A stretch of 64,000 nucleotides of DNA from an uncultured delta proteobacterium (GCA_963787125.1 CAWBBV010000004.1:96001-160000), one strand, 5' to 3'; positions 28,615 through 59,225 are shown, counted from the stretch's first letter. Notes: a model not told the origin generated them from the sequence alone. Made by a program: numbers and translations.

Positions 28615-28759
28615 TCTGTCCTCCTGGTATGTTGAATAAATGGCTATTCAATAACAGGCTGACAATAGAACTACAAGACTGGTAACTTATTATTTTATCT
28701 ATAATTTCCGGGGAAAAATCTGTAGCTCTCAGTCATATATAACGTTGCTTGCTAATCAA

Positions 28760-30091: not shown

Positions 30092-30149
30092 CAGCAACGG
30101 CTGAGAGCACACCGGCGGCGGGTTTTTGCCGACCGGTGCTGCGCTTAGT
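30092..30149 (-). other. attC (terminal), interrupted by intron 1; remainder at 32049-32053
   Basis: CAGCAAC...GCACACCGG/CCGGTGCTGC...TAGT|TGGGC. Confidence 0.85.
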
Positions 30150-32048
30150 GTACGCCCGTCATGGGCGTGAACTTATGGGGTGCAAGTCCCCTGTACGGTG
30201 AATCCAACACTGTCGCGAGACAGCGTAAACCAAGTACTAGCCGAAGGCAAGGGCGTCTCCGCGAGGAGGGGGCTGGAGGAAGCCGGAGCGCAAAGCTATG
30301 AGCCGACGAACAGAAACAGCATACAAGGCCATCATCCGGGCAAGTCAGCACAACATGACGAAGTCCCTCGGGTTCAGGAGAAATGGTAAATGCTGCGGTT
30401 GTGTAGCCACAGTTCACGTTCTTATCCGGGGAGATCTGCTCCGCATGCCATTGATTCCTGATGGCGCGGCATCTGGTAACAGCTGCCGTGATGGAGCAGA
30501 AGTCAGCAGAAGCCATAGTAGGCGAAGGACGTTGCCGCAAGCGATCCGGCAACTGGAAACAAGCCCGGGAGAGTCCGGGAAGCCTTACCCCGCCGAAGGG
30601 CCGAACGATAGAAAAGGGGAGGAGCCCCAATGAGCTTTCATGACATATCGAACCCGTCCGGGGGAATGCCCATGGAGCGCGTCATTGACCAGCCAACCCC
30701 GGAGCAGCACCTACTGGAGCGGATATTATCCAGTGTGAACATGGAGCAAGCGTGGAAACGGGTCAAAGCCAATAAGGGCGCACCCGGCGTCGATGGCATC
30801 ACCATCGAACAATTCCCCGACCATACCCGTTCTCACTGGAACACTATTCGCGAATCGCTAATGACAGGCAGTTACCAACCTTTGCCGGTAAAGCGGGTAG
30901 AGATTCCCAAAGCAACGGGTGGAACCCGTCCGCTGGGGATACCCACTGTACTTGACCGGCTGATCCAACAGTCCATTGCCCAAGTGTTGACACCGATCTT
31001 CGATCCGGACTTCTCCGCATCGAGCTTCGGTTTCCGTCCCCGTCGGTCAGCAAAAGATGCTGTCCGAAAGGTGCGGGAGTACATCCAGCAGGGATACCGG
31101 ATTGCCGTGGATATTGACCTTGCCAAGTTCTTCGACACGGTCAACCATGATCTGCTCATGCACCTTGTGAGCAAGAAAGTTCACGACAAGCGGGTACTAG
31201 CCCTGATCGGCAAGTACTTACGGGCAGGTGTAGAGGTAAAAGGGCGTCTTGAAAAGACCAGACTGGGTGTCCCCCAGGGTGGCCCACTCTCGCCGCTTCT
31301 AGCCAACATCCTGCTCGACACACTGGACAAAGAACTTGAGAAACGCGGTCACAAATTCGTCCGCTATGCAGACGACTTCGTCATCCTCGTCAAAAGCCAG
31401 CGCGCCGGCGACCGGGTAATGGAAGGAATGAAAACCTTCCTGACCAGCAAACTCAAGCTCACAGTCAATGAAACCAAGAGTGCGGTAGCAAGAACATCCC
31501 GCATCGACTTCCTTGGTTTTATCTTCAGTGGCACCCGCATCATCTGGTCTGACAAGGCATACAAGGAATTCAGACGCCGCGTCAAACAGTATACCGGAAG
31601 AAGCTGGCGGGTCTCCATGAAGTACCGGATGTACAAACTGGCTCAATATCTCCGTGGCTGGATGGGGTACTTCGGCATCTCGGAGTATTACCGGGAAATC
31701 CCGGAAATAGACGGCTGGATACGGCGCAGGATACGGCTCTGCTACTGGAAGCAGTGGCGCTGGTGTCGTACCAAGATTCGGGAGCTGCTCAAGTTGGGGA
31801 CGGAGAAATTCACCGCCATCCGAGCGGGCCTGAATAGAAGTGGCCCGTGGGCCATGTCCCGAAGACTTGCAGCCCATACCGGTTTGACCAACAAATGTCT
31901 GAAGGATCAAGGTTTATTATCTGTCAAAGAACTGTGGGTGAAGCTTCACTACCCGGCTACGGCCCGGTAATTCTATCGAACCGCCGGATGCGGACCCGCA
32001 TGTCCGGTGGTGTGGGGGCTGGGGGAGAAAAACCCCCGGCTACCCGAT
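30150..32048 (+). mobile_element. Group IIC-attC intron, copy 1
   Basis: Starts GTACG, ends CCCGAT, domain V with a CGC triad, EBS1 ACAA at 30350; inserted at TAGT|T in the attC bottom strand. Confidence 0.92.
30630..31970 (+). CDS. ltrA: Group II intron reverse transcriptase/maturase (no endonuclease domain)
   Basis: NKGAPGVDG, RPLGIP, PQGGPLSP and YADD motifs; 446 aa. Confidence 0.95.
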   Translation: MSFHDISNPSGGMPMERVIDQPTPEQHLLERILSSVNMEQAWKRVKANKGAPGVDGITIEQFPDHTRSHWNTIRESLMTGSYQPLPVKRVEIPKATGGTRPLGIPTVLDRLIQQSIAQVLTPIFDPDFSASSFGFRPRRSAKDAVRKVREYIQQGYRIAVDIDLAKFFDTVNHDLLMHLVSKKVHDKRVLALIGKYLRAGVEVKGRLEKTRLGVPQGGPLSPLLANILLDTLDKELEKRGHKFVRYADDFVILVKSQRAGDRVMEGMKTFLTSKLKLTVNETKSAVARTSRIDFLGFIFSGTRIIWSDKAYKEFRRRVKQYTGRSWRVSMKYRMYKLAQYLRGWMGYFGISEYYREIPEIDGWIRRRIRLCYWKQWRWCRTKIRELLKLGTEKFTAIRAGLNRSGPWAMSRRLAAHTGLTNKCLKDQGLLSVKELWVKLHYPATAR

Positions 32049-32073
32049 TGGGCATCGCTGTTTTTTTCCGAAC

Positions 32074-37510: not shown

Positions 37511-37566
37511 GTCCAACGGCTCGGGAGATCACCGGGCGGGTTTTTGGCCCGGTGTATCTGCCTTGT
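37511..37566 (-). other. attC interrupted by intron 2; remainder at 39467-39471
   Basis: GTCCAAC...TTGT|TGGAA. Confidence 0.88.
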
Positions 37567-39466
37567 GTACGCCCGTCATGGGCGTGAACTTATGGGGTGC
37601 AAGTCCCCTGTACGGTGAATCCAACACTGTCGCGATGACAGCGTAAACCAAGTACTAGCCGAAGGCAAGGGCGTCTCCGCGAGGAGGGGTCTGGAGGAAG
37701 CCGGAGCGCAAAGCTATGAGCCGACGAACAGAAACAGCATACAAGGCCATCATCCGGGCAAGTCAGCACAACATGACGAAGTCCCTCGGGTTCAGGAGAA
37801 ATGGTAAATGCTGCGGTTGTGTAGCCACAGTTCACGTTCTTATCCGGGGAGATCTGCTCCGCATGCCATTGATTCCTGATGGCGCGGCATCTGGTAACAG
37901 CTGCCGTGATGGAGCAGAAGTCAGCAGAAGCCATAGTAGGCGAAGGACGTTGCCGCAAGCGATCCGGCAACTGGAAACAAGCCCGGGAGAGTCCGGGAAG
38001 CCTTACCCCGCCGAAGGGCCGAACGATAGAAAAGGGGAGGAGCCCCAATGAGCTTTCATGACATATCGAACCCGTCCGGGGGAATGCCCATGGAGCGCGT
38101 CATTGACCAGCCAACCCCGGAGCAGCACCTACTGGAGCGGATATTATCCAGTGTGAACATGGAGCAAGCGTGGAAACGGGTCAAAGCCAATAAGGGCGCA
38201 CCCGGCGTCGATGGCATCACCATCGAACAATTCCCCGACCATACCCGTTCTCACTGGAACACTATTCGCGAATCGCTAATGACAGGCAGTTACCAACCTT
38301 TGCCGGTAAAGCGGGTAGAGATTCCCAAAGCAACGGGTGGAACCCGTCCGCTGGGGATACCCACTGTACTTGACCGGCTGATCCAACAGTCCATTGCCCA
38401 AGTGTTGACACCGATCTTCGATCCGGACTTCTCCGCATCGAGCTTCGGTTTCCGTCCCCGTCGGTCAGCAAAAGATGCTGTCCGAAAGGTGCGGGAGTAC
38501 ATCCAGCAGGGATACCGGATTGCCGTGGATATTGACCTTGCCAAGTTCTTCGACACGGTCAACCATGATCTGCTCATGCACCTTGTGAGCAAGAAAGTTC
38601 ACGACAAGCGGGTACTAGCCCTGATCGGCAAGTACTTACGGGCAGGTGTAGAGGTAAAAGGGCGTCTTGAAAAGACCAGACTGGGTGTCCCCCAGGGTGG
38701 CCCACTCTCGCCGCTTCTAGCCAACATCCTGCTCGACACACTGGACAAAGAACTTGAGAAACGCGGTCACAAATTCGTCCGCTATGCAGACGACTTCGTC
38801 ATCCTCGTCAAAAGCCAGCGCGCCGGCGACCGGGTAATGGAAGGAATGAAAACCTTCCTGACCAGCAAACTCAAGCTCACAGTCAATGAAACCAAGAGTG
38901 CGGTAGCAAGAACATCCCGCATCGACTTCCTTGGTTTTATCTTCAGTGGCACCCGCATCATCTGGTCTGACAAGGCATACAAGGAATTCAGACGCCGCGT
39001 CAAACAGTATACCGGAAGAAGCTGGCGGGTCTCCATGAAGTACCGGATGTACAAACTGGCTCAATATCTCCGTGGCTGGATGGGGTACTTCGGCATCTCG
39101 GAGTATTACCGGGAAATCCCGGAAATAGACGGCTGGATACGGCGCAGGATACGGCTCTGCTACTGGAAGCAGTGGCGCTGGTGTCGTACCAAGATTCGGG
39201 AGCTGCTCAAGTTGGGGACGGAGAAATTCACCGCCATCCGAGCGGGCCTGAATAGAAGTGGCCCGTGGGCCATGTCCCGAAGACTTGCAGCCCATACCGG
39301 TTTGACCAACAAATGTCTGAAGGATCAAGGTTTATTATCTGTCAAAGAACTGTGGGTGAAGCTTCACTACCCGGCTACGGCCCGGTAATTCTATCGAACC
39401 GCCGGATGCGGACCCGCATGTCCGGTGGTGTGGGGGCTGGGGGAGAAAAACCCCCGGCTACCCGAT
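37567..39466 (+). mobile_element. Group IIC-attC intron, copy 2
   Basis: Near-identical to copy 1 with an identical protein; inserted at TTGT|T. Confidence 0.92.
38048..39388 (+). CDS. ltrA: Group II intron reverse transcriptase/maturase
   Basis: Same protein sequence as 30630-31970. Confidence 0.95.
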   Translation: MSFHDISNPSGGMPMERVIDQPTPEQHLLERILSSVNMEQAWKRVKANKGAPGVDGITIEQFPDHTRSHWNTIRESLMTGSYQPLPVKRVEIPKATGGTRPLGIPTVLDRLIQQSIAQVLTPIFDPDFSASSFGFRPRRSAKDAVRKVREYIQQGYRIAVDIDLAKFFDTVNHDLLMHLVSKKVHDKRVLALIGKYLRAGVEVKGRLEKTRLGVPQGGPLSPLLANILLDTLDKELEKRGHKFVRYADDFVILVKSQRAGDRVMEGMKTFLTSKLKLTVNETKSAVARTSRIDFLGFIFSGTRIIWSDKAYKEFRRRVKQYTGRSWRVSMKYRMYKLAQYLRGWMGYFGISEYYREIPEIDGWIRRRIRLCYWKQWRWCRTKIRELLKLGTEKFTAIRAGLNRSGPWAMSRRLAAHTGLTNKCLKDQGLLSVKELWVKLHYPATAR

Positions 39467-39520
39467 TGGAACGTCACTCATTTTCATATTCAAAGGCAGC
39501 CCCGAATTTCCCCTACACTT

Positions 39521-40437: not shown

Positions 40438-42111
40438 CCCGAATCCGCAAATCTCTGCCGGACACATTCAGGCAGCGTGAGTTCGGGGGTATTTTTTCAG
40501 TGAGCTCCCTTTGATGGGAGTCGAAAACACATATTTTCTCTAAAATTCAAAAAGTGACGCGCTATTTGCCTCTTCAGACGATGTTTTTTGCCGGACTGAA
40601 GACGAACTGCCCCCTTGTTCTTGCTTTTTTGTTCTTTGACAATCTCGTTTTCAGCTTTTCTTTAGCAGGTTACCGGCTGAAGCCTGCCGATTCTTGCCTG
40701 AATCCTGTCAGGGCGAAGTTTCTCCAGCCACCAGCCGTTGACTTTCAGCAGGCTCTTGCGGGCATGATTGACCACGATTGCCGCACTACGCAGCAGATAA
40801 TCCTGAATGGTCTTGATCCGCCGCCGTACCGGTGTTAAGTGACTGTCCATCTCTCCGTCACCAGCTTCATCCCGCCACTGCTGACCCAGCAGGATAAGCA
40901 GGTTGTAGGCCATGGTCCCCAAGGTAAGGAATACTTCGTTGACACTGAAGGTCTGGGAGGGGAGTCGCTCCAGATCCAGGTCGTGCTTGAGTTCCTTGTT
41001 CGCTTCTTCTGCAGCTCCACGCCCCCGATAGAGTTCGAATGCCCGCTGCGGGGTGACTTCTTTGGGTAGATTGGTGGCCAGTATGTGGTAGCGGACGTCA
41101 TTGAGCAGCAGTGGCTGTCCTTTCTCGTCTACGGACTTGATCTGAACACAGAAGACGAAACGGCGGGGAGTTTTCCAGCCGCTTGGGGTGTACTCGAATT
41201 CTCCGTAAAACTCGCCGCCGAAGTCAGTGACTTTGAGGCTCATAACATCGACATCGAGATTCTCGTTTACCACTCGATCCAATGCGCCGCTGGCTCGGGC
41301 CTTGACCAGATAGTATGCTTTAGCATCTTCGCTGGCTTGAACAGTTTTGATGCTGTAAAGCCCGGCATCGTAGCGAAACAGGAGCTTGTTCCGATCTATT
41401 TTCTCGGGGAGCAGCTCTGCCGTTTCCCTGATGAATTCGTCAATCCGTTCAACAGCTTTCTCTCTGCCTGGCAACAGCCAGTGATTGATGCAGAACCGTT
41501 CGCGCCCGAGAACTGCAAATACAGGGGTGTAGCAAAGTTTACCGTTGTAAGTGGTTTGAACCCCTTCCCGTTTGGGAGCAAATTGCTCGAAGATACTCGG
41601 GTCAATGTCGCAGGGAATATAGCCTTCAGCCCCCGGTTCAGCTGTGATGCTTGCTTGGGAAACAATCTTTGCGCCGACCCGCTTGAGACCGGTTATTTCC
41701 TCTTTGCCATATTTCTCCAGATGCATGGCAACAGCTCGCTCTTTGGGGAGTTTGCCAAAGCCGAGCGATTTCTTGAGCAGTTTCTCTTCCCGTGCCAGCC
41801 AGGCAAGATCAGTGTAGCTGGTCCGGCGTAAGGAAATGTTTAGTAACAGCGGGATTAGATGTTCCTCTTCCCGGAAGCCGTAGTCGATCTTCTTGACCCG
41901 CACTTCGTTTCTGATGGCTCGAATCAGATCGAGACGGCGTATGAGGGTGGTGAGCAGCTCCAATCCTGCTACGGAAGTTAGCGTCTGTCGGGCTGCTACA
42001 TACTGAAAACCGAGATTGTCTTTCACCATTCGGGTGAGCTCCTTCACTACAATTATGTGAAGGATTATAGCATGTTACACTATATTAACCCAATAGTTTT
42101 GCGGATTGGGG
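40438..42111 (-). mobile_element. IS1380-family insertion sequence
   Basis: 14-bp terminal inverted repeats CCC(G/C)AATCCGCAAA; 5-bp target duplication ATAAT at 40433 and 42112. Confidence 0.88.
40662..42047 (-). CDS. IS1380-family DDE transposase
   Basis: CDIDPS, RYDAGLY and YRGRGAAEEANKELK motifs. Confidence 0.88.
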   Translation of the reverse strand: MKELTRMVKDNLGFQYVAARQTLTSVAGLELLTTLIRRLDLIRAIRNEVRVKKIDYGFREEEHLIPLLLNISLRRTSYTDLAWLAREEKLLKKSLGFGKLPKERAVAMHLEKYGKEEITGLKRVGAKIVSQASITAEPGAEGYIPCDIDPSIFEQFAPKREGVQTTYNGKLCYTPVFAVLGRERFCINHWLLPGREKAVERIDEFIRETAELLPEKIDRNKLLFRYDAGLYSIKTVQASEDAKAYYLVKARASGALDRVVNENLDVDVMSLKVTDFGGEFYGEFEYTPSGWKTPRRFVFCVQIKSVDEKGQPLLLNDVRYHILATNLPKEVTPQRAFELYRGRGAAEEANKELKHDLDLERLPSQTFSVNEVFLTLGTMAYNLLILLGQQWRDEAGDGEMDSHLTPVRRRIKTIQDYLLRSAAIVVNHARKSLLKVNGWWLEKLRPDRIQARIGRLQPVTC

Positions 42112-43969: not shown

Positions 43970-44698
43970 TCAGGGGAATTTCTTTATCTGTAGTGATTTG
44001 CCCTTGATGATGTCAAATGCCCGGTTTGGCTGTTCCGGCCGCAAGCAGTTCAGGGCAATCGGACGGGCAACGAGATCGGCCAGTTGCAGTCCGCTAGAAT
44101 TGCTCCGTTTGTCTACAAAAATCAGCTCAAATCGTATTTTTGAAAAGTCCGCCGATTTATACCCCCACCTTGCCCTATTGTCGCATATCCTTCTGAATTC
44201 CAGTTCAAGCTCTCTGTCTTCCTTTGCGCCTCTGCTTTCCACGAGGATATGCGCCGTTTTTTGCGTCTGTCCAAGTTGAGTCAACTTTGCAAGCATCCGT
44301 TCCATGCAGAACAACATTGATAGTTCATAAGGATTGAACGGCTCTGAATAACGGGTGCGGAGATGATCCTTGTCGATCACCGCCGCAACAATATTGAAAG
44401 GGGCTTCTTCGATTATCACGTTAAGTCGTTGATAAAAGCTCTCGCGCATCTCCCTGTTTGTGCGCAAGATTCCGAACGGGCCTTTTTCTTTGCGGATGTC
44501 GTGTTCGTGCAGGATTATCTGGTCATGACCCCAGAAATCGAGCTTTAGCTGCTGGATGCTCGGGACGATTCGGTTCAAATAATCATCCTTTGCTACCATG
44601 CAGAAAACGAGTGCAAACACCGGAAACTGCGGGTCAATCGTGGAAAGTCCGTGGTCGCCGCTCTCGTCGGCAAATATGAGGTAATCGCTGAATATCAT
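43970..44698 (-). CDS. DUF3800-domain protein
   Basis: IFADESGD and GLQLADLVARPI motifs; C-terminal KKFP. Confidence 0.88.
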   Translation of the reverse strand: MIFSDYLIFADESGDHGLSTIDPQFPVFALVFCMVAKDDYLNRIVPSIQQLKLDFWGHDQIILHEHDIRKEKGPFGILRTNREMRESFYQRLNVIIEEAPFNIVAAVIDKDHLRTRYSEPFNPYELSMLFCMERMLAKLTQLGQTQKTAHILVESRGAKEDRELELEFRRICDNRARWGYKSADFSKIRFELIFVDKRSNSSGLQLADLVARPIALNCLRPEQPNRAFDIIKGKSLQIKKFP

Positions 44699-44783: not shown

Positions 44784-45752
44784 TTAAGCTAACCCAATTC
44801 CAATTTCATAGCACCTTGTCGGCTCTTCCTGATAATAACCTTCATATATGTACCCTGCTCCTTCAAAAGAATTCTTGATTGCTCCAATGGACGGATGCTG
44901 AAGAACCCAGCCAGCAGTCTCCCGGAGGATATATGAGCAGAACAAATCTAAGTGCAGCATAGTGTCCAAAAGGCCTGCTCCGACAACACGAGCACCAGGC
45001 TTGAAGTAAGGGCGCATAATCTTTAAAAGACCAACACGCTCTTCAGTGGCAAGGCCACAGAGCACGCCAATGATGAGCCCATAATCAGCATTTTGTTTAT
45101 ACATTTTGTGGAGTCTCGTCATGCTTTTCTCTACAAAATGGATGTTGTTCAGCTTGTGTTGTTTGACCAGCTGTATCCCGTAGTTAATGGCCGAAGCATC
45201 GGTATCGATGCAATGAAATTCAACACGTTCAGCAAATTCCGGATTGTCGAGTACCAGTTGAATACAATTACGTCCTGGGCCGGAACCGAGGTCAAGAACC
45301 AAGCACTTTTCTTGATGTTTCAATATGTTGTTGATGTGTTCTGCTGCCTTTTCATTGACAGCACGGAAACGTGCTTCCAGAGAAATGAACGCCGGCAGGC
45401 TGGCTTTAAAGAAAAGATCTATCGGTGTATGTACCTCTTCAAAACCATACATTTTCTCAAGCATCGTGTAAGTTCCGGGATACTCCGACAAGTCAGGAAT
45501 GATGGTACTGTTATTTTGAAAATGCTGAAAAACTTCTGACTCGCCAATGTCAGCGAGGTTTTTACCTGCAAGATAGCCATTAACGAGGCCGTCACTGATA
45601 TTTTTAGGCAGATTTGATAATAGAGCCTGAGCGTGTTCGGTTTTTAGATACCGTTCCTTTGCTTCAATTGGTTGTTCATAGGCTGCGACCAAATTTGGAC
45701 AGGAAATTGACTTGCCTGCCATTGCATTTTCACCACGTTGATTTGCTCCCAT
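44784..45752 (-). CDS. Class I SAM-dependent methyltransferase
   Basis: VLDLGSGPG, CIDTD and KPGA motifs; RBS GGGAGG before ATG 45752. Confidence 0.8.
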   Translation of the reverse strand: MGANQRGENAMAGKSISCPNLVAAYEQPIEAKERYLKTEHAQALLSNLPKNISDGLVNGYLAGKNLADIGESEVFQHFQNNSTIIPDLSEYPGTYTMLEKMYGFEEVHTPIDLFFKASLPAFISLEARFRAVNEKAAEHINNILKHQEKCLVLDLGSGPGRNCIQLVLDNPEFAERVEFHCIDTDASAINYGIQLVKQHKLNNIHFVEKSMTRLHKMYKQNADYGLIIGVLCGLATEERVGLLKIMRPYFKPGARVVGAGLLDTMLHLDLFCSYILRETAGWVLQHPSIGAIKNSFEGAGYIYEGYYQEEPTRCYEIGIGLA

Positions 45753-45773
45753 TTTGCCTCCCGTTGTTTTGAT

Positions 45774-45827
45774 GTTCAACGTCATAAGCCTGACCGGCCG
45801 GTTTTTAGGGCCGGTCCTGGCGCTTGT
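45774..45827 (-). other. attC interrupted by intron 3; remainder at 47729-47733
   Basis: GTTCAAC...GACCGGCC/GGCCGGTC...TTGT|TGGAC. Confidence 0.88.
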
Positions 45828-47728
45828 GTACGCCCGTCATGGGCGTGAACTTATGGGGTGCAAGTCCCCTGTACGGTGAATCCAACACTGTCGCGAGACA
45901 GCGTAAACCAAGTACTAGCCGAAGGCAAGGGCGTCTCCGCGAGGAGGGGTCTGGAGGAAGCCGGAGCGCAAAGCTATGAGCCGACGAACAGAAACAGCAT
46001 ACAAGGCCATCATCCGGGCAAGTCAGCACAACATGACGAAGTCCCATGGGTTCAGGAGAAATGGTAAATGCTGCGGTTGTGTAGCCACAGTTCACGTTCT
46101 TATCCGGGGAGATCTGTCCGAATTGCCGTTCCAGATACGTGGGGCTGCGCTCTGCATGGCAACATGCCGGGTATCGGACAGAAGTCAGCAGAAGCCATAG
46201 TAGGCGCGAGACGTTGCCGCAAGCGATCCGGCAACTGGAAACAAGCCCGGCAGAGTCCGGGAAGCCTTACCCCGCCGAAGGGCCGAACGAAGAAAGGGGA
46301 GTAGCACCAATGAGCTTTCATGACATAAAGAACCCGTCCGGGGGAATGCCTATGGAGCGCGTCATTGATCAGCCAACCCCTGAGCAGCACCTACTGGAGC
46401 GGATACTCTCCAGTGCGAACATGGAGCAAGCGTGGAAACGGGTCAAAGCCAATAAGGGCGCACCCGGCGTCGATGGCATCACCATCGAACAATTCCCCGA
46501 CCATACCCGTTCTCACTGGAACACTATTCGCGAATCGCTAATGACAGGCAGTTACCAACCTTTGCCGGTAAAGCGGGTAGAGATTCCCAAAGCAACGGGT
46601 GGAACCCGTCCGCTGGGGATACCCACTGTACTTGACCGGCTGATCCAACAGTCCATTGCCCAAGTGTTGACACCGATCTTCGATCCGGACTTCTCCGCAT
46701 CGAGCTTCGGTTTCCGTCCCCGTCGGTCAGCAAAAGATGCTGTCCGAAAGGTGCGGGAGTACATCCAGCAGGGATACCGGATTGCCGTGGATATTGACCT
46801 TGCCAAGTTCTTCGACACGGTCAACCATGATCTGCTCATGCACCTTGTGAGCAAGAAAGTTCACGACAAGCGGGTACTAGCCCTGATCGGCACGTACTTA
46901 CGGGCAGGTGTAAAGGTAAACGGGCGTCTTGAAAAGACCAGACTGGGTGTTCCCCAGGGTGGCCCCCTCTCGCCGCTTCTTGCCAATATCCTGCTCGACA
47001 CACTGGACAAAGAACTTGAGAAACGCGGTCACAAGTTCGTCCGCTATGCAGACGACTTCGTCATCCTCGTCAAAAGCCAGCGCGCCGGCGTCCGGGTAAT
47101 GGAAGGGATGAAAACCTTCCTGACCAGCAAACTCAAGCTTAACGTCAATGAAACCAAGAGTGCGGTAGCAAGAACATCCCGCATCGACTTCCTTGGTTTT
47201 ATCTTCAGTGGCACCCGCATCATCTGGTCTGACAAGGCATACAAGGAATTCAGACGCCGCGTCAAACAGTATACCGGAAGAAGCTGGCGGGTCTCCATGA
47301 AGTACCGGTTGTATAAACTGGCTCAATATCTCCGTGGCTGGATGGGGTACTTCGGAATATCGGAGTATTACCGTGAAATTCCGGAAATAGACGGTTGGAT
47401 AAGGCGCAGGATACGGCTCTGTTACTGGAAACAGTGGCGCTGGTGTCGTACCAAGATCAAGAATCTACTGGCACTTGGTACGCAACTTGGCACCGCCATC
47501 CGAGCGGGCCTGAATAGAAGCGGCCCGTGGGCGATGTCCCGAAGATTGGCTGCTCATACCGGTTTGACCAACAAATGTCTGAAGGATCAAGGCTTATTAT
47601 CTGTCAAAGAACTGTGGGTGAAGCTTCACTACCCGGCTACGGCCCGGTAATTCTATCGAACCGCCGGATGCGGACCCGCATGTCCGGTGGTGTGGGGGCT
47701 GGGGGAGAAAAACCCCCGGCTACCCGAT
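45828..47728 (+). mobile_element. Group IIC-attC intron, copy 3 (mosaic variant)
   Basis: Same ends as copies 1 and 2, with divergent blocks at 46114-46181 and 47458-47500. Confidence 0.92.
46310..47650 (+). CDS. ltrA: Group II intron reverse transcriptase/maturase
   Basis: 446 aa from ATG 46310; YADD motif; a few substitutions versus copies 1 and 2. Confidence 0.95.
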   Translation: MSFHDIKNPSGGMPMERVIDQPTPEQHLLERILSSANMEQAWKRVKANKGAPGVDGITIEQFPDHTRSHWNTIRESLMTGSYQPLPVKRVEIPKATGGTRPLGIPTVLDRLIQQSIAQVLTPIFDPDFSASSFGFRPRRSAKDAVRKVREYIQQGYRIAVDIDLAKFFDTVNHDLLMHLVSKKVHDKRVLALIGTYLRAGVKVNGRLEKTRLGVPQGGPLSPLLANILLDTLDKELEKRGHKFVRYADDFVILVKSQRAGVRVMEGMKTFLTSKLKLNVNETKSAVARTSRIDFLGFIFSGTRIIWSDKAYKEFRRRVKQYTGRSWRVSMKYRLYKLAQYLRGWMGYFGISEYYREIPEIDGWIRRRIRLCYWKQWRWCRTKIKNLLALGTQLGTAIRAGLNRSGPWAMSRRLAAHTGLTNKCLKDQGLLSVKELWVKLHYPATAR

Positions 47729-47779
47729 TGGACATTGGCCTTTTCACTCGTTAAGTTACAAAACTTGCCAGCGTTCCTT

Positions 47780-48310
47780 TCAGGTAGCGTGGCCTAGAAT
47801 AAATTGCAAACGCATATTTATTGACTCTAGCTCATTATCTGAAAAGAGTGGAACATCAATTAGCCGAAATCCAAGTCTCATGTAAACCTCACGGAGTTGC
47901 CTTGATACAGCAACAGCTTGGTCAGGGCTATCTTTTCTCTGGGCGTCGGTGCGATACTCAGGTAACATTTGTAAGAAGAATACATCTTGTTCATAATTGG
48001 CGTTATTTATATCTTGATATATCGAATCACTTATAGGGCACTGCGCAACTTCTGCGAAAGCAATGGGGTCTACCAATGATCTGTCGAGAAATGCAACATT
48101 ACCAACGAGACCTCTTTCGCGCTTCACTTGGAGCTGGCGACATGCTTCGCAGAAAATCTCTTGGTTATCCCATGGGAATATATTTTCTGCTTGAATCAAC
48201 ATTCTCGATGATTCTTCCAGCACTAATTGTCCTCTTTTTGATATTAATTCTATCAAAGATGACTTCCCTGAATTAGGTCCACCTGTTAAAATGTATTTTT
48301 TTATATTCAT
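47780..48310 (-). CDS. AAA_28 / NadR-type P-loop NTPase or kinase
   Basis: ILTGGPNSGKSS, LEE, FLDRS and YRTDAQR motifs. Confidence 0.8.
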   Translation of the reverse strand: MNIKKYILTGGPNSGKSSLIELISKRGQLVLEESSRMLIQAENIFPWDNQEIFCEACRQLQVKRERGLVGNVAFLDRSLVDPIAFAEVAQCPISDSIYQDINNANYEQDVFFLQMLPEYRTDAQRKDSPDQAVAVSRQLREVYMRLGFRLIDVPLFSDNELESINMRLQFILGHAT

Positions 48311-48359
48311 AAGTTGTAGGTTTTTGCACGTTGTTAGCAGTATATTGTCAATTTTAAAG

Positions 48360-50165
48360 TTATTTATCCTGTAGCCTATCCAATGGAGGCTTCTGAGTTA
48401 ATTCATGTTGTTTCGTATCATCTTGTGGTGCTGAAACAAGTTGAGCAGGATTGAAAAAATATACAATGGCAAATACAGCTAAAGCTCCACCAGCCTTCAA
48501 CCATGAACCTAAATTTAAATTTATAAAGCCAGGTATAAAAGCGGCAATGCCTGCTATTGCAAGTGCTAAAATTATTCTAAAAACATTGTATTGAAAGTTA
48601 GTTGGATTTGGGAAGGCAATTGCAAGAACCAGCATTGTAATTATAAATACGATCCCAAATGAAAAAATTAATATTTTTTCGGTGCCCATTTTTGTATTCT
48701 CTTTTTCAGATTCCATAACTCTCCCGTCATCTGTTGATAATCCCGAATTAAAATTCGGCTGATGTCCATCCTCCATTACAACTTGATTCAAAGTAACGTT
48801 TTTTGCACTTGCATGCGAACCAACCGCTACGGCCTGTTTGACATTGTTTTGATCGCCCATAATGATATTCCTACCTATAAATATTTTTGTTCCTGCGTGA
48901 ATCTTCTTGTTGGCAACAACATTACCAACCACCTCAGCTAAAACATTAGAACCAATATTTTCGATGATACGGTTATTGTCGTTTAAAGAATCTGAACATA
49001 ACGTGTCTTGTGACTCTGACATAATTGACTCATAGAATATATCAGAGATGAGTTGCGATGCATTGTCAGGCGAATTAATGGCGAATAAAACATTAGATGC
49101 TATCTCATTATTTAAAATATTATAGATGTTCTGTTTTTCTGATATGTCAAGTTGATCAACTAGATACATAGCGATTTTATTTTTTACATGACTATTTTTG
49201 ACTGTTTTATAGCCTGAGGAAAGTATTTCAGACATTTTAACATCGCTAATAAATGCAGATGACTTTAATAAATTATTAATAGCAGCTAAAATTACAAGAT
49301 CATCTTGGCCGCCGTTAACTGCTGACATCATTTTATCTACGACAAAACCATACTCGCTATAATTTGCCATTGCGGTAATAACTGATTCAGCATAAAGAGG
49401 GTCTGTCTGGAAATAGGAATGCTCAACCTCATTAACTAATAAATGTGGGACATCACGATGCGTTGTGTATGGGAGGCCTTTTACAGCCCATTCTCTTGCT
49501 CGGACATTCGTTTCTTTCTCTAAAACATAAGTATAGTTTACTAAATCTGACTCGTCTGCAAATTCTTTGACTGCATACATTGCCCATTCTCTGACAAGAT
49601 AATCATCATCATGGAATGACTCCTTGAGGGCCGTTTTAATTTCAGATGTAATATCAGATTTGTTTCCGATTGATAGCGCAGCCCATTTCCGCACATGACT
49701 TTTGCTGTGCGATAGAGCTGACATAAGATACTTCATAAGTTCAGGGCTATAATCTTTATAACCCCACGATTTAATAACGCCAATATCAAAATCATTTTTA
49801 GAACCAAGTTCCACAGGATAGATGTTACTCAAGTTATAGTTGCTTACCTCCAAACACTTCGTTGCAGCGATCAGCCATTCTCTTACATCTTCATCGAAGA
49901 TTTGTTTTGTTTTTTGTAAAAGTGCATCAATGGCTGCTACGCCAGCTTCAATAATGGCAAACGTATATGCAAACCATCTGATTACTTTAGGGTGTTCTTC
50001 ACTACTAAAGAGGTTAATAAGAATAAGAATCGCAGGAACATTATTTGTATAATAAACCTTTTCTGAACAAATATTCTGTAGGGCTCTGACACGCAAAAGC
50101 GGGTCAGTGCTTGTAAGTTGGTGGAAGATGAATTTGTGGTTCCGAGTGTTATTCATTGATGGCAA
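48360..50165 (-). CDS. HEAT-repeat protein with a C-terminal three-helix transmembrane domain
   Basis: Repeated VR(K/E)WA helices; hydrophobic C-terminus FPNPT.FQY.VFRIILALA...AGGALAVF.IVYFFNPA. Confidence 0.75.
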   Translation of the reverse strand: MPSMNNTRNHKFIFHQLTSTDPLLRVRALQNICSEKVYYTNNVPAILILINLFSSEEHPKVIRWFAYTFAIIEAGVAAIDALLQKTKQIFDEDVREWLIAATKCLEVSNYNLSNIYPVELGSKNDFDIGVIKSWGYKDYSPELMKYLMSALSHSKSHVRKWAALSIGNKSDITSEIKTALKESFHDDDYLVREWAMYAVKEFADESDLVNYTYVLEKETNVRAREWAVKGLPYTTHRDVPHLLVNEVEHSYFQTDPLYAESVITAMANYSEYGFVVDKMMSAVNGGQDDLVILAAINNLLKSSAFISDVKMSEILSSGYKTVKNSHVKNKIAMYLVDQLDISEKQNIYNILNNEIASNVLFAINSPDNASQLISDIFYESIMSESQDTLCSDSLNDNNRIIENIGSNVLAEVVGNVVANKKIHAGTKIFIGRNIIMGDQNNVKQAVAVGSHASAKNVTLNQVVMEDGHQPNFNSGLSTDDGRVMESEKENTKMGTEKILIFSFGIVFIITMLVLAIAFPNPTNFQYNVFRIILALAIAGIAAFIPGFINLNLGSWLKAGGALAVFAIVYFFNPAQLVSAPQDDTKQHELTQKPPLDRLQDK

Positions 50166-50169
50166 ACTC

Positions 50170-51360
50170 TCATGACAAGTCTTCTAACAGCTTTTCCCAA
50201 TTACTTATTATGCAATCATCGCCATAACCATTTCTGAATAAATCTTTATCATATGATTGTCCGTCTTTACGGATTCTCATTCCGTCTGGTGATATTTCAG
50301 AAATTATTTTAATACTTCCATCAAGAGTAAATCCATATACAAAACACAAATCAATTAACTCATATCCTGCATTTTTAAGTAAATCTTGCAACACACTAAA
50401 GGCATTGCTTGAAGTGTTTTCCAATTGTTCTGGATCAAGTCCATAGTTTATTATGTAATCTCGTGGTATCGTTATATCTTTGGGGTCGCATCGATAATCA
50501 AATCTTACTATTGGTTTTTTAAAAGGCATATTAGGATAAAAGAGGCCTGGGCAATCAGTTATTGTTGTGCCAACAGCCGTTTTTTTAACAATTACTTCGA
50601 AGGGTAAAGAATAACAGTAGTCGCATGAGTATGAATTTGAACTTAATCTATTGTAATCAATAACTTCAATTGAGTTGCTTTGTAATGCTCTGATGAACTT
50701 TTCGCAAATTGAGTTTCTGAGTAATTCAGTACCTACAACATTTTCGCTCCTGTGATATGTGACTGAATCTAACGAAGGCTTAAGCTCTACAATAATATTG
50801 TTGCATTTCCGGTAAACTATTTTACTTCTACCCTCTTTGATTTTATGTTGTTTGCCTGATATTACATCTTGATATCTATTGAGTATCAACTCAACTATTT
50901 CATTTACGGTCATATTATCAGTTTGTAAATACATTGCGTTCCAATTGTCAGCCAGTCTGTAATAATGAGGTTTATAAAAACCTTCACTATCAACATCTTC
51001 AGGCTCATTTTTACTCGATAATCTTCCTCTTAAAGTTTCAATATCTGCATCAAGAGAAACAAGCAAATCCCTGTCAGATATTAGCTTCAAGAAACTTAGA
51101 GGATGGTTAATCATGGTTTGCGGCGTTAGATGATACCTGTCAAAAATACCCACGTTCGGAAGCGATTCGAGGATATCAATTGAAAGAGACATCGCAGCGT
51201 TGGGATCTTTGAACCATAACTCATAGATATCTTTACGGCCAGCGAATGGGGCATACACTTCAGCCCCTAAGCGTTGAGAGAGTATTCTTGCAATACTTGT
51301 TTTTCCCACTCCATTTGGACCCTCCAACATTATCCTTGATTCCAGTTTTGGTAACTCCAT
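50170..51360 (-). CDS. Fusion of a thymidylate-kinase-like P-loop domain and a SAICAR synthetase (PurC)-like domain
   Basis: N-terminus LEGPNGVGKT and FDRY; C-terminus EGRSKIVY, PFEVIVK, EISPDGMR and DKDLFR. Confidence 0.8.
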   Translation of the reverse strand: MELPKLESRIMLEGPNGVGKTSIARILSQRLGAEVYAPFAGRKDIYELWFKDPNAAMSLSIDILESLPNVGIFDRYHLTPQTMINHPLSFLKLISDRDLLVSLDADIETLRGRLSSKNEPEDVDSEGFYKPHYYRLADNWNAMYLQTDNMTVNEIVELILNRYQDVISGKQHKIKEGRSKIVYRKCNNIIVELKPSLDSVTYHRSENVVGTELLRNSICEKFIRALQSNSIEVIDYNRLSSNSYSCDYCYSLPFEVIVKKTAVGTTITDCPGLFYPNMPFKKPIVRFDYRCDPKDITIPRDYIINYGLDPEQLENTSSNAFSVLQDLLKNAGYELIDLCFVYGFTLDGSIKIISEISPDGMRIRKDGQSYDKDLFRNGYGDDCIISNWEKLLEDLS

Positions 51361-51476
51361 GTAATTCCCCTTTTATATTAAACCGGTTTTACCGAAATAA
51401 TCGTAGTTTCATCTATGGCAACATCAGCCGCACTCCATAATCAAACAAGGTAATAGCGCATCATTTCTTTCCTCCT

Positions 51477-51545
51477 GTTCAACGGGGCTGCGCCTGACCT
51501 GCCGGGCGGGTGTTTGCCCGGTCATGGTCTTGGCGCGTGTTGGGC
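51477..51545 (-). other. attC site
   Basis: GTTCAAC...GCGCCTGACC/GGTCTTGGCGC...GTTGGGC. Confidence 0.88.
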
Positions 51546-51557
51546 ATTTGTTTGGCT

Positions 51558-52772
51558 TCAGTTGATTGACTGCTGCCCGCACTCTCGACAATACTTCCCA
51601 TGAACATGCATCAGACTGTTGCAATTGCTACAAGTTTTAAACTGCGAAAACCCGCAAAAGGGGCATGCCTGCGATCCGGCAGGTAGATGTTTCCCGCATT
51701 GCTGGCATTCTCCTTTCGATATCCTGCGCTCAATCAGCTTCTCGCGCGAAAAAAGCTTCTTCTGAAAGATATAGATCAGGAAAAGCGCTACCGCTACAGC
51801 TAGCGCAATTACGAGGTAGTGCCAAACCGCAATAAGCTTGAGGGACTCCAGAAGGTCAATGAGCTTCTTCAATAATTTCTTGGGGATGATGTCGTAAACA
51901 GTTTCGATGATTTTGCAAAGGATCGGGATAAATGAGATTCCCAATAGGTGAGAGGAAACCAGAGTTTGGAGCCCCCGGCTTTTCCTGATGCTTGTGTTAT
52001 TCCAGGCATAAAAAACCACAAAGAGCGGCAACAGGAAGATCATCTGCATGCCTAGCTTCTTTACCGGATACCAGTAGTTCAATGTGCGTAGTTCTGTAAT
52101 TAGTTTTTGCCTGTCTTGTTCTTGTAGACCCTGTAACCTTTCCCAGAGCAGCTTAACTATTGCCTCGCTGTTAATTGTTTGTTCCAATGATGCTATACGG
52201 GCTTTCAGGACGTTAAGGGCGCTTGTTTTCTCCTGAAAATCCTTTTTAGTTGCATCTACTTTTGTTTGGCTTTTCTGCTGTTTCGCTATTGTTTCAAGTA
52301 AAGACGTATCGTAAGCGCCTTTTAGATTATCGATTGCCCGCTGCAGCTCCTTTGCTTCGTGTTCTGATTTATTTCGGTCTTCAAAAATGCTGGTTAATGC
52401 CTTGTCGTTCTTGATTTGTTCAACTAGATCGACATAGGGAACACAGACCGGATGCCGTTCTTTTCTTTTCTCTTCATCTCTGTAAGGGCTGGTGCTGGAG
52501 GAAATTATGATCTGTGACAGGTTATCGATCCGGTTGGTGGGGTTCCATTGGCGATTGACGACGATTTCCCGACAGGTATTCGGAATGTAAGCATCTGGAG
52601 AGGAGAGTTGCCTTGTATGGGCGTCAAGCCCATCGAAAATTGAAACAAGGATGAATATGTCCAGGAAGATAATGATTAACAGCGCCGCTTTGCCCAATGG
52701 CTGTTCATCAAGGCTGGTAAGATGGGTCCTGACTTTGGCAAATTTATCCTTGAAATTTCCTCCCACACTCAT
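51558..52772 (-). CDS. Membrane protein with a coiled coil and a C-terminal double zinc ribbon
   Basis: Transmembrane segments and four C-terminal CxxC motifs; RBS GGGAGG. Confidence 0.8.
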   Translation of the reverse strand: MSVGGNFKDKFAKVRTHLTSLDEQPLGKAALLIIIFLDIFILVSIFDGLDAHTRQLSSPDAYIPNTCREIVVNRQWNPTNRIDNLSQIIISSSTSPYRDEEKRKERHPVCVPYVDLVEQIKNDKALTSIFEDRNKSEHEAKELQRAIDNLKGAYDTSLLETIAKQQKSQTKVDATKKDFQEKTSALNVLKARIASLEQTINSEAIVKLLWERLQGLQEQDRQKLITELRTLNYWYPVKKLGMQMIFLLPLFVVFYAWNNTSIRKSRGLQTLVSSHLLGISFIPILCKIIETVYDIIPKKLLKKLIDLLESLKLIAVWHYLVIALAVAVALFLIYIFQKKLFSREKLIERRISKGECQQCGKHLPAGSQACPFCGFSQFKTCSNCNSLMHVHGKYCRECGQQSIN

Positions 52773-56976: not shown

Positions 56977-59225
56977 ACCGGGTAGGTCAGGAGCCTTTCG
57001 GCTCCTTTCCCCCCTCAGAACCGTACGTGACAGTTTCCCGTCATACGGCTCAAGCCCTCCAAAGTAATCTCCCTCTCGGGATACCCGGCTATCTGCTTCT
57101 TTCCTCGGTGTTGTTGTCCCTTCACGCCGCTTTTCGGGCGGCGCGACCTGCTCGCCTTCTTTGTTGCTCGGCTCTTCGCGCCTTGAAGTATGCTTCATAC
57201 TCCGGGTCGAAGGGATTGGCGGCACCGCGAATCTTGATGTGTCTCTCGATCTTGGTGCTGGTAGCGTGAATGAGTGTTACCCGGCGTTTTCCTTCCGGGG
57301 TTTTCTCCATCACGGAGAAGTACGTGCTCACGGGGGTGCTGTGCCAGTATGTCTTCGTCAGCCAGCGCTTCCCCTTGTGCGGATGCCTTCTCCTTGCCCA
57401 ATCCCGCAGGTAGCGGTAGATTTGGCTGTCCAGTGCGGCGAAGGTGGCTTTTGCGGCGATGTTCCGGTGATAGTTGCTCCAGCCCCGAATGATCGGATTC
57501 AAGGCGCGGATCATATCACCGGCTTTCATTGCCGAGAATTTCCGGATCGTCTCCCTGATTCTGGTCAGGATGGTTCTGTAGTTGCTCCTGGCCGGTTTCG
57601 TTAGGAACTTCCCGCTGTACTTGCGCGGGTGTTGCCCCAGAAAGTCGAATCCGTCCTCTATCCGCGTTATCCGGGTTTTCTCCGGGGAGAGGGTGAGACC
57701 TCTTTCTTGAAGAAACCTTTCTACCGCTGGTTTGATCGTCTCTTCGAGAAGTTCTTTCGTCTTCCCGGTGATGACGAAGTCGTCGGCGTAGCGGATAACG
57801 TTGACTTTGGTGCGGTAAGGGGTGACGGCTTTTACTGCCGCTTCCAGACCGTCCAGAGTCATGTTGGCCAAGAGCGGGGAGATGATTCCCCCTTGCGGGG
57901 TTCCCGCTTTGGTCGGATAGAGTCTGCCTTCGTCGAAGTACCCTGCGTTCAGCCACTGCCGGAGCATAAGACGATCCATGGGGATATTGCTCATGAGCCA
58001 GTCATGGCCAATCTCGTCGAAACAGGCTTTGATGTCTCCTTCCAGTATCCATTGTGCCGAGTACTTCTTTGCCAGTCCGATGTAGCATTGGTGGATGGCG
58101 TCGGCGCAACTTCGATACGGGCGGAATCCGTATGAATTGGGATCACCCTTAGTCTCGGCCACCGGTAACAGTGCTTGTGCGTAAAGCGCTTGCATAGCCC
58201 TGTCATGCATGGTGGGGATACCCAAAGGGCGCATCTTGCCGTTCTTCTTCGGTATGTAGACCCGCCGTAGTGGCCGGGCTTGATAACCGCGACGTTGCAA
58301 GGTGTGTACAGCTTTCATTCTCTGCTTCGGCGTGTACCAGATTGCTCCGTCCACGCCGGGGGTTTTTCTTCCTCGATTGGAAACAACCCGTTTGACGGCT
58401 AATGCTTTGCCGGCAAACGAGTGGGTCAGAAGCCATTGCAGGGTTTTCACTCTGCCGCGGCGACCTTCCCTGACAGCCTTTGCGATACGGATTTGCAGTC
58501 TTCGGACTTCGCGGCGGGCTTTCTGCCAGTTTATGGCTTTCCAGTCGTTGCCGCTGGCGGAGGGTGCACCAGTCAATCTTGCGATTGCCGCCATTTGCTT
58601 TCCCTCCCAAGGAAGATTCTCCAAACGATCTCGCAATGGAGCACCGGCATTGGACGTCAGCTCCCTTTCGGGCCGAGTGATGTTTCAACCCGTATCCGTC
58701 CCATTACAGGGCGGCATTCGCTTCTTCCGGCCTCTTACTCCCGCACTCCCGACAGTGTGCCTTACGGTTTCACCTGCTCCAGTCTACCGGAGCGGAAATA
58801 CGGGGTTTCCACGTTCCACGTCTCTGACGATGGGTGACTTAGGTCCATTCTGTACACCGGCAGCACTATTGTCCCCGCAGGGGCACCGTTACATCCCCTG
58901 ACCGGCTGCATACCTTTTGGTTCAAGCCTGTCAGCCTCATTTGGCTTGCTCCCCTTGACGGCGCGAGCGAACGTTCACTTGTGTTGACCATATCACCTTT
59001 GAATCCTAGCCCTCACCCGGATCAAGGCTTCCAGGAGGGCGGTCGCCTCACGGTTTCCGCCCCTCCCGCAACAGCGGAATTCGGCTACATTGTTGGAAGG
59101 GCTCCGCACCAGCATGGATGCACCATGGCAGCACGCCTTCCTAGGATACCCGCGGGGGAACACGGGGTCTGGTCAGAATAATCATCATTCAGCCAGACAG
59201 TCATCAACGCGACATCGTGTCGCGA
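56977..59225 (-). mobile_element. Group II intron (CL/IIB-like) inserted in the attC R' core on the top strand
   Basis: 5' end TCGCGACACG; domain V GAGCCGTATGACGGGAAACTGTCACGTACGGTTC; 3' end CCCGGT; removal restores GTTA|GCT. Confidence 0.85.
57122..58636 (-). CDS. ltrA: Group II intron reverse transcriptase/maturase with an RVT_N domain and no HNH domain
   Basis: WKAINW...RLQIRIAKA, KTPGVDG, PQGGIISP, YADD and NPFDP motifs; the start may be 58594. Confidence 0.92.
   Translation of the reverse strand: MRDRLENLPWEGKQMAAIARLTGAPSASGNDWKAINWQKARREVRRLQIRIAKAVREGRRGRVKTLQWLLTHSFAGKALAVKRVVSNRGRKTPGVDGAIWYTPKQRMKAVHTLQRRGYQARPLRRVYIPKKNGKMRPLGIPTMHDRAMQALYAQALLPVAETKGDPNSYGFRPYRSCADAIHQCYIGLAKKYSAQWILEGDIKACFDEIGHDWLMSNIPMDRLMLRQWLNAGYFDEGRLYPTKAGTPQGGIISPLLANMTLDGLEAAVKAVTPYRTKVNVIRYADDFVITGKTKELLEETIKPAVERFLQERGLTLSPEKTRITRIEDGFDFLGQHPRKYSGKFLTKPARSNYRTILTRIRETIRKFSAMKAGDMIRALNPIIRGWSNYHRNIAAKATFAALDSQIYRYLRDWARRRHPHKGKRWLTKTYWHSTPVSTYFSVMEKTPEGKRRVTLIHATSTKIERHIKIRGAANPFDPEYEAYFKARRAEQQRRRAGRAARKAA

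Follow-up and report, generated by a model that had tools for sequence, protein, structure and literature searches.

A kinase–PurC-like fusion and its HEAT-repeat partner in an integron cassette: a candidate two-gene conflict module

What might a small kinase fused to a PurC-like enzyme be doing beside a HEAT-repeat protein in an integron cassette? The question is raised by a 64,000-nucleotide stretch of the genome of an uncultured delta proteobacterium (GCA_963787125.1, CAWBBV010000004.1:96001-160000), called the window below, with positions counted from its first nucleotide. A 3.7-kb cassette on its minus strand (47729..51476) carries three co-directional open reading frames (ORFs), g1, g2 and g3, which an initial annotation, made from the sequence alone, had proposed as a three-gene, nucleotide-based defense system. 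The comparisons described here point to a pair, g1 and g2, as the unit. We consider it an even call whether the cassette is a mobile two-gene conflict module, most likely anti-phage and of the abortive-infection type, with one accessory gene.

The kinase–PurC-like fusion

g1 (50170..51360, minus strand) encodes a 396-residue protein, in which a P-loop kinase domain (residues ~1-170) is followed by a non-canonical domain with the fold of SAICAR (succinylaminoimidazolecarboxamide ribotide) synthetase, PurC (residues ~174-395). The Pfam family SAICAR_synt (PF01259) matched residues 174-382 with 74.4 bits against a cut-off of 20. An AlphaFold2 (AF2) model of g1, with a predicted local distance difference test (pLDDT) score of 86.9, was aligned by Foldseek with most bacterial and archaeal PurC structures at template modeling (TM) scores of 0.83-0.87 and identities of 21-24%, and the likeness in fold covers the whole PurC-like domain.

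The kinase domain gave sub-threshold Pfam matches only (residues 9-121; Cytidylate_kin 24.5, AAA_18 24.8, dNK 17.9), and is therefore best described as a generic small-molecule or nucleotide kinase. Its structural neighbors in Foldseek were shikimate kinase, AK6/Fap7 and deoxynucleoside kinases, and the kinase motifs GxNxVGK, DR[YF]H and Arg113 are invariant across the g1 family. The initial annotation had correctly read g1 as a P-loop kinase joined to a SAICAR-synthetase-like domain. Its more specific label of thymidylate kinase was rejected, the backing for it being a match to PHROG 761 (33 bits) and the sub-threshold kinase families.

The PurC-like domain departs from canonical PurC at its presumed active site. 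In HMMER alignments to PurC chains (2yzl, 4fe2) and in a motif table of 38 sequences, the canonical motif DxKxExG is replaced in the g1 family by DxC[FL][IV]xG, and DE..PD by SE[IV]SPD, so that the positions of the canonical Lys, Glu and Asp are occupied in g1 by Cys, Val and Ser. Cys, Val/Ile and Ser are found at these positions in 12/12 fusions and in most standalone relatives, compared with Lys and Glu in 6/6 and Asp in 5/6 of the canonical sequences in the table. The altered motifs noticed in the initial annotation are thus real and family-wide. The motifs G[RK]SK, PFE, SPD and DKDLFR, which correspond to the G-x-x-K, PxE, SPD and DKDxFR types of PurC, are retained, and by sequence the domain appears to keep its ribotide-binding motifs.

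The Glu and Asp of the PurC site presumably bind ATP-magnesium. The SAICAR-synthetase site of human PAICS, as modeled in PMC9376930, includes Lys191, Glu193 and Asp207, with Lys191 hydrogen-bonded to the aspartate substrate. Judging from the K-x-E spacing, these three residues would be the ones replaced in g1.

Could g1 nevertheless be an ordinary purC that happens to be fused to a nucleotide kinase, with unrelated neighbors? The fold is that of PurC and the Pfam match lies above its cut-off, as this explanation predicts, and yet we regard it as highly improbable. The genome has a canonical purC elsewhere (contig C6), which scores 257 bits compared with 76 for g1, making g1 a second copy; against the purC equivalog TIGR00081, g1 scores 26.7 bits, far below the cut-off of 189.9. 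The replacement of Lys, Glu and Asp throughout the family, the fused kinase, the rare and patchy occurrence of the gene and its conserved linkage to g2 also speak against it. The PurC-like domain of g1 is not the housekeeping PurC, in agreement with the initial annotation. In a maximum-likelihood tree of the 38 sequences, in which the PurC from the same genome is a very long branch, the 12 fusions form one clade (support 100/100) that is nested within the non-canonical family and split from canonical PurC, also at 100/100.

The conserved pair and its HEAT-repeat protein

Our protein collection contained g1 in 11 other full-length clusters (52-63% identity), along with 7 shorter PurC-only proteins; at 90% identity, the fusion family numbers 12 clusters. 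The same cassette is present in a metagenome-assembled genome of Planctomycetes (locus L001; L005 is the same contig), where DNA identity is 94% between window positions 51490 and 47729 and does not continue past the ends of the cassette. By tblastn, g2 was found directly 3' of g1 at 4/4 independent fusion loci, namely L001/L005 and the diverged metagenome loci L006, L007 and L008, with identities to the window of 53-94% for g1 and 39-92% for g2. L006 stops inside g2; the sequence after g2 is visible in L007 and L008, neither of which contains g3. A hidden Markov model of the HEAT N-terminal domain matched only fusion loci, and 0/14 loci with standalone PurC-like genes (L009-L022).

Six further g1/g2 cluster pairs were matched by the size of the source contig, and the two proteins of L007 are identical to the paired clusters P0004 and P0023. 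Identities of g1 and of the g2 HEAT domain are correlated across nine pairs (Mantel r 0.92, reached by 0/5000 permutations), a test in which 6/9 pairs were assigned by source-contig size and the window–L001 pair weighs heavily. At the level of sequence, g1 and g2 are thereby shown to be a conserved, co-diverging pair. Because g2 follows g1 at all four loci and g3 occurs only in the window and L001, the conserved unit is g1 plus g2, not the trio.

The third gene, g3 (47780..48310, minus strand), encodes a 176-residue AAA_28 (NadR-kinase-like) P-loop protein (Pfam, 82.3 bits) that is 96% identical to its copy in L001 and matches PHROG 2107 ('thymidylate kinase') with 43 bits. No tblastn match to g3 was obtained in L006-L008, a sequence search of the PDB gave none, and the protein atlas returned AAA_28 clusters only. 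g3 appears to be an accessory gene, seen only in the cassette lineage of the window and L001. The initial annotation had assigned g3 to the right family, and had treated the three genes as a unit in which the NTPase regulates; the AAA_28 gene is absent from L007 and L008, the two diverged loci with sequence visible beyond g2, which speaks against the trio and leaves the regulatory role without comparative backing.

g2 (48360..50165, minus strand; 601 residues from a TTG codon) encodes a HEAT/ARM solenoid (residues ~1-345), a linker motif (~395-470) and hydrophobic helices (~497-573). Since an identical protein in the collection has 598 residues, the start is probably the ATG at 50156. The composition given in the initial annotation, HEAT repeats joined to a three-helix membrane domain, agrees with the Pfam match to HEAT_2 (41.9 bits) and with three hydrophobic segments in the hydropathy profile (~497-518, 527-549 and 557-573), of which the third is weak. 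The AF2 model has pLDDT >90 for residues ~20-280, falls towards ~345 and is unreliable beyond, and in Foldseek it resembled only generic ARM/HEAT proteins (importin-alpha, PP2A-A), at low TM scores. Prediction of a complex between g1 and the HEAT part of g2 (residues 1-370) gave no answer (score 0.00), which counts neither for nor against binding.

Compared with L001, where g2 has 759 residues, the window g2 carries an in-frame deletion of 474 nucleotides, which removes ~158 residues after the transmembrane helices (L001 4501-4975 is absent). The junction lies at 48379..48388 (minus strand), where the blastn segments overlap by 10 nucleotides, and contigs ~95% alike from 4 sequencing runs break or continue differently at 48382-48384.

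Close relatives of g2 share a constant HEAT N-terminal domain (~350 residues) and linker motif, and end in one of three alternative C-termini. Three transmembrane helices are found in the window and L001, a helical tail of ~80 residues in P0021, P0022, P0023, P0027, P0028 and L008, and a PNP_UDP_1 domain in P0024, P0025, P0026 and P0046. The three-helix form is sister to a tail form of 74% identity, with support of 100/100, which indicates that the swap was recent. Alternative modules behind a constant N-terminal domain, as expected of effector swapping, were thus found within one HEAT clade, and the sensor-like character that the initial annotation gave to the HEAT protein fits these swappable ends.

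A profile search with the HEAT partner against 1.84 billion representatives gave 4959 matches at E <=0.001, and 52 of 150 listed matches were scanned with Pfam. Among the 23 scanned relatives that matched over the N-terminal domain, PNP_UDP_1 was present in 18 and a nitrilase domain in 1, with nothing further in 4. Counting distant relatives only, PNP was seen in 17 and nitrilase in 1 of 22. The 29 that matched over the linker and tail only carried pentapeptide repeats (6), ThsA_Macro (2), Roc-COR (1), SPFH with a zinc ribbon (1) or no family (19).

Several of these ends resemble known defense effectors. PADLOC matches were obtained for seven g2-related proteins tested: the C-terminal half of P0024, for example, matched PDC-M60C with 235 bits and the 'Effector PN-superfamily' of the cyclic oligonucleotide-based anti-phage signaling systems (CBASS; PDLC00759) with 57 bits, and the nitrilase-bearing relative matched nitrilase models of defense-associated reverse transcriptases (DRT). 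In this respect, PNP-bearing g2 proteins are like PNP nucleosidase effectors (PDLC00759, PDC-M60C) in their C-terminal half, whereas the window g2 has three transmembrane helices and no PADLOC match, and neither g1 nor g3 matches a PDC-M60 component. The name PDC-M60 appears in one survey paper. The transmembrane module of g2 matches PHROG 5814 (106 bits) and was present in 17 other clusters, joined to TIR (3), a protein kinase (1), TPR (1), an ABC-type substrate-binding domain (PF04392; 1) or no family (11).

P0151, P0178, P0129 and, at their C-termini, P0021-23 share a helical module of ~115 residues with the motif GDxYxVxQAGAVGP...AGKWxLDxAT, which matched no Pfam family. The module is found by itself as well as terminally in pentapeptide-repeat, ThsA_Macro, Roc-COR and SPFH proteins. 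A PDB sequence search with the tail module gave one match, at E 0.12, and the protein atlas gave no family for it, with TCAD2 at 0.87, below lead level.

Possible roles of the pair

The neighborhoods of the diverged loci include several genes of conflict systems. A MazF pair follows g2 in L007, and a convergent TIR-NACHT-HD gene follows it in L008. In L001, where the trio is flanked by ParB and ParA genes, the middle component of an ABC-3C system (MC3, 129 bits) is encoded 2.7 kb downstream of the trio, together with a gene whose end matches DUF3732 (L001 8265-10371). The conservation check proposed with the initial annotation was therefore borne out for the g1–g2 pair, which recurs in diverged relatives beside toxin–antitoxin, TIR-NACHT-HD and ABC-3C genes, and failed for the trio. 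The reading of the cassette as a conflict or defense module is drawn from a rare, mobile and tightly coupled pair, defense-type end domains, and defense or toxin–antitoxin neighbors.

Tight coupling of two genes on mobile DNA would also suit an addiction pair of toxin–antitoxin type that stabilizes the cassette or its carrier, with g2 as a latent membrane or nucleosidase toxin restrained by g1. Toxin–antitoxin genes do occur in integron arrays and in L007, and the C-terminal modules of g2 are plausible as toxins. This explanation is nonetheless improbable, given that a 396-residue, two-domain enzyme with conserved, catalytic-looking motifs would be atypical as an antitoxin, and that g1, being large and located upstream of g2, better suits the role of an enzyme partner.

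For a conflict module, we infer each step of the following mechanism. The PurC-like domain would convert a ribotide of the purine or histidine pathway to a non-canonical nucleotide, by chemistry that would differ from the acyl-phosphate ligation of aspartate. The fused kinase would maintain or raise the phosphorylation state of the product, a role that would set it apart from the phosphatase adjoining standalone relatives. During infection, the product, or g1 itself, would activate the HEAT protein, whose C-terminal module would then damage the cell; this module would be the three-helix membrane module here, and a PNP-type nucleosidase or the helical tail in relatives. g3 would be a second small P-loop kinase-like protein, added on in this cassette lineage.

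In a more specific form of this proposal, the PurC-fold enzyme without the canonical ligase residues, together with the nucleotide kinase, would synthesize an immune nucleotide of a new class. The product could be a ribotide of the purine or histidine pathway, modified by ring rearrangement or in another way, which would be kept phosphorylated and read by a HEAT-solenoid receptor firing interchangeable killing modules. We hold this form tentatively, as rather unlikely. If true, it would be the first generator of a signal or antimetabolite with a SAICAR-synthetase fold in bacterial immunity, and would connect phage defense with the kind of chemistry known from pentostatin/coformycin-type nucleoside antibiotics.

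CBASS, Thoeris and Pycsar are two-gene signaling defense systems with exchangeable effectors. The g1–g2 pair is similar to them in that an enzyme gene adjoins a gene for a protein with a constant N-terminal domain and a swapped C-terminal module (transmembrane, nucleosidase or other), and the tail module of g2 relatives also occurs on ThsA_Macro proteins (2/29 tail-matching proteins scanned). Unlike the enzymes of these systems, g1 is not a CD-NTase, a TIR protein or a cyclase, and the putative sensor is a HEAT solenoid, not a SAVED, SLOG/Macro or cyclic nucleotide (cNMP)-binding domain. If the pair is a defense system, it would add a PurC fold (as enzyme) and a HEAT solenoid (as receptor) to the few known generators of signals and antimetabolites in bacterial immunity, and would suggest that enzymes of nucleoside-antibiotic synthesis were recruited into intracellular immunity, or the reverse.

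The closest parallels in enzymology come from nucleoside antibiotics. CofB, studied by Ren et al. in 2020, is said to make 8-ketocoformycin 5'-phosphate from an intermediate of the histidine pathway without a phosphorylated intermediate. A PurC/SAICAR-synthetase homolog is named in PMC13055916 and PMC8724604 as a core gene common to the pentostatin, coformycin, pyrazomycin and adechlorin clusters, and PMC12648386 lists PenB (SDR) and PenC (SAICAR-synthase homolog) as core pentostatin genes.

Standalone members of the non-canonical family are proteins of 235-290 residues, 39-46% identical to g1. Their neighbors were examined at 10 loci (30 chosen ORFs), where a Cof-type HAD phosphatase was found nearby in 5/10, an adjacent SDR in 2/10 (L011, L018), a PurF-like gene in 1/10 and a nonribosomal peptide synthetase (NRPS) gene in 1/10. 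The standalone relatives are thus like PenC/CofB in being PurC homologs beside SDR and HAD-phosphatase genes, as in PenB–PenC, and PenC and CofB themselves place PurC homologs in non-purine chemistry. The fusion loci differ, having a fused kinase and a HEAT partner in place of an SDR or phosphatase; no SDR was found in the window, L001, L006, L007 or L008. The phosphatase beside standalone genes, set against the kinase inside the fusion, is suggestive. Cluster names of the relatives read 'SAICAR synthase' only, and the PenC/CofB label is a lead and not a result.

At one of the standalone loci (L012 349-3233), four genes stand in a row: two that are PurC-like, the second of them diverged, then a separate kinase-like gene whose product is 26% identical to the g1 kinase domain, and an ankyrin-repeat gene. 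This row may be an unfused analog of the theme of g1 plus a repeat protein.

These parallels bear on two other explanations. The cassette could serve specialized metabolism or salvage of a nucleoside analog or unusual ribotide and have no role in phage defense, with the HEAT/transmembrane protein as a scaffold, anchor or transport-associated partner and g3 as a pathway kinase. The core position of PurC homologs in the antibiotic clusters described in those sources, the SDR, HAD, PurF-like and NRPS genes beside standalone relatives, and the two kinase-like domains of the cassette would fit such a role. We consider it quite unlikely, as the exchange of three-helix, helical-tail and PNP ends is hard to reconcile with a single pathway role, the PNP domains match defense-effector models, defense and toxin–antitoxin genes adjoin relatives, and the fusion loci are without SDR, phosphatase or exporter.

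Alternatively, the HEAT protein alone might be both sensor and effector, binding a phage protein directly in the way of HEAT-type sensors in other defense proteins. g1, as a separate arm, would then poison phage nucleotide metabolism with an antimetabolite, and not supply a signal; the nucleotide might be a coformycin-like deaminase inhibitor that the fused kinase keeps phosphorylated. The solenoid of g2 belongs to a generic kind that binds proteins; in DSR2 (PMC11263360), a HEAT-repeat region is joined to an effector, and the trigger is a phage tail tube protein; and the HAD phosphatase (5/10) and SDR (2/10) genes beside the nearest standalone relatives of the g1 C-terminal domain resemble the PenB/PenC core given in PMC12648386. 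We regard this explanation as unlikely, because the tight co-divergence of g1 and g2, with a gap of a few bases, would go unexplained, the coformycin link is a lead only, and no fusion locus has an SDR.

Several points also weigh against a conflict module in which g1 drives g2. HEAT solenoids usually bind proteins, not small molecules, and the three helices could serve to anchor g2 in the membrane and not to kill. The deletion in the window g2, not seen in any relative, may impair the protein or leave it less active than the L001 form. L006 adjoins genes for SelB and a penicillin-binding protein, not defense genes. With 12 clusters the fusion family is tiny, so that comparative support comes from few lineages. 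A scan for promoters and terminators was not above chance (11 promoter-like sites versus 14.1 expected). Finally, the absence of a PADLOC model for g1, g3 and the HEAT domain fits novelty but is no evidence of defense: in PADLOC-DB v2.0.0, g2, g3 and the g2 of L001 were without a match, and g1 matched at the P-loop level only (<=19 bits). The statement in the initial annotation that the architecture matches no named system thus agrees with that database.

The fusion is rare. It occurred in 1/401 genomes sampled from the phylum of the window, the one being the window's own. No fusion-type g1 was present among the best 80 of 175 viral loci, which had only canonical phage purC (25-33% identical). 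Distant HEAT-PNP relatives, proteins of ~650-690 residues, were found at 0 loci in viral contigs; the search for them recovered only the window's own g2 in the 401 genomes, and L001 plus one PNP-only match in 351 genomes of the phylum of L001. In the literature searched, which did not extend to bioRxiv preprint supplements, SAICAR was not found together with anti-phage or defense terms or with HEAT repeat, and SAICAR, PurC, kinase and nucleosidase have 0 occurrences in 10.64898/2026.03.17.712381.

The g1–g2 pair is compact (~3 kb) and is available in natural full-length (L001) and deleted (window) forms and with three effector variants, which makes the proposal directly testable.

The integron array around the cassette

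The first 25 kb of the window contain housekeeping genes (glutamate dehydrogenase, glycine cleavage, SbcCD), and the G+C fraction is mostly 0.47-0.61 within the first 31 kb. From ~30 kb on, ORFs without a family match, mostly on the minus strand, form an array in which they are separated by attC-like repeats; these occur throughout 32-64 kb. An IntI gene (TIGR02249, 341 bits) is encoded on the plus strand at ~65.7-66.7 kb, ~1.7 kb past the right end of the window and divergent from the array. With attC on both sides and an array adjoining a divergent intI, the three-gene unit is an integron cassette.

The G+C fraction is 0.34-0.36 across 48-51 kb, compared with 0.50 and 0.45 in the adjoining kilobases. 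A strict RYYYAAC...GTTRRRY hairpin scan found no attC inside the cassette, and the g1–g2 gap (a few bases) and the g2–g3 gap (49 nucleotides) are too short to contain one. The initial annotation was accurate in describing a single AT-rich 3.7-kb cassette without an internal attC and with three tightly spaced, co-directional genes, all of them minus-strand ORFs.

The upstream boundary of the cassette is the R' core GTTGAAC of the attC of the preceding cassette (51477..51545, minus strand; 69 nucleotides, -31.8 kcal/mol), which was detected in the strict scan and belongs to repeat families D8, D9 and D14. At the other end, the attC of the cassette itself is split by a group II intron (~45821..47734, plus strand; Rfam RF02001, RF01998 and RF00029; Pfam RVT_1 and GIIM), whose reverse transcriptase (RT)/maturase ORF lies at 46139-47650 and which runs counter to the cassette genes. 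The proximal half of this attC, up to the intron insertion point, is at 47729..47779 (minus strand), homology to L001 stopping at 47729. The distal half, at 45767..45820 (minus strand; repeat family D10), includes the R' core that starts the next cassette, which carries a methyltransferase gene. The initial annotation had placed the start of the cassette at 47734; its multi-gene integron cassette stands, and that coordinate is where the intron splits the attC. Integron arrays can thus carry multi-gene modules, and a group II intron may interrupt the attC of such a module.

An intron-less form was seen in a contig from an RNA library (run X2), which connects 47728 straight to the distal attC half. 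In three wastewater RNA libraries, all from the same study, contigs 90-99% alike covered 25-29/30 bins, and similar contigs covered 30/30 bins in a single groundwater DNA run; RNA-library contigs do not demonstrate transcription, and neither expression nor habitat is derived from this coverage.

Phage defense encoded by integron cassettes is described in 10.1101/2024.07.02.601719 and PMC12614218. The present cassette is similar to such cassettes in being bounded by attC in an IntI-linked array, and differs in holding three genes in 3.7 kb.

Two further copies of the intron are located at 30143-32064 and 37560-39482; together with the copy from 45821, they are near-identical (95-100% alike), on the plus strand, and contain RT/maturase ORFs. 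The insertion of the copy from 45821 within an attC-like site resembles that of the attC-targeting IIC type. Another class (RF02012 and RF00029; RT with RVT_N) is represented by a fourth group II intron, at 56977-59167 on the minus strand, that of the cassettes. Transposases of the IS110-family, IS200-like Y1 and DDE types are encoded at 27325-29749 and 40662-42047 (minus strand), at the distal end of the array and inside it.

Neighboring cassettes on the minus strand encode an S-adenosylmethionine (SAM) methyltransferase (44784-45785; PADLOC mad2, 42 bits) and a DUF3800 protein (43970-44698). The next cassette upstream (51558-52772, minus strand) encodes a protein of 404 residues that is coiled-coil-like in its middle and has hydrophobic segments; the double zinc ribbon at its C-terminus is its only family match. 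At the edge of the array, a gene for a DUF4062 protein adjoins one for a HATPase_c_4/Fic-like_C protein (25243-26816, plus strand); in a 2026 preprint (10.64898/2026.09.04.749371), DUF4062 receives a new name as a bacterial-immunity NADase. The same genome encodes another full-length integron integrase (338 bits) on a different contig (C23:106715-107650), and therefore has at least two integrons.

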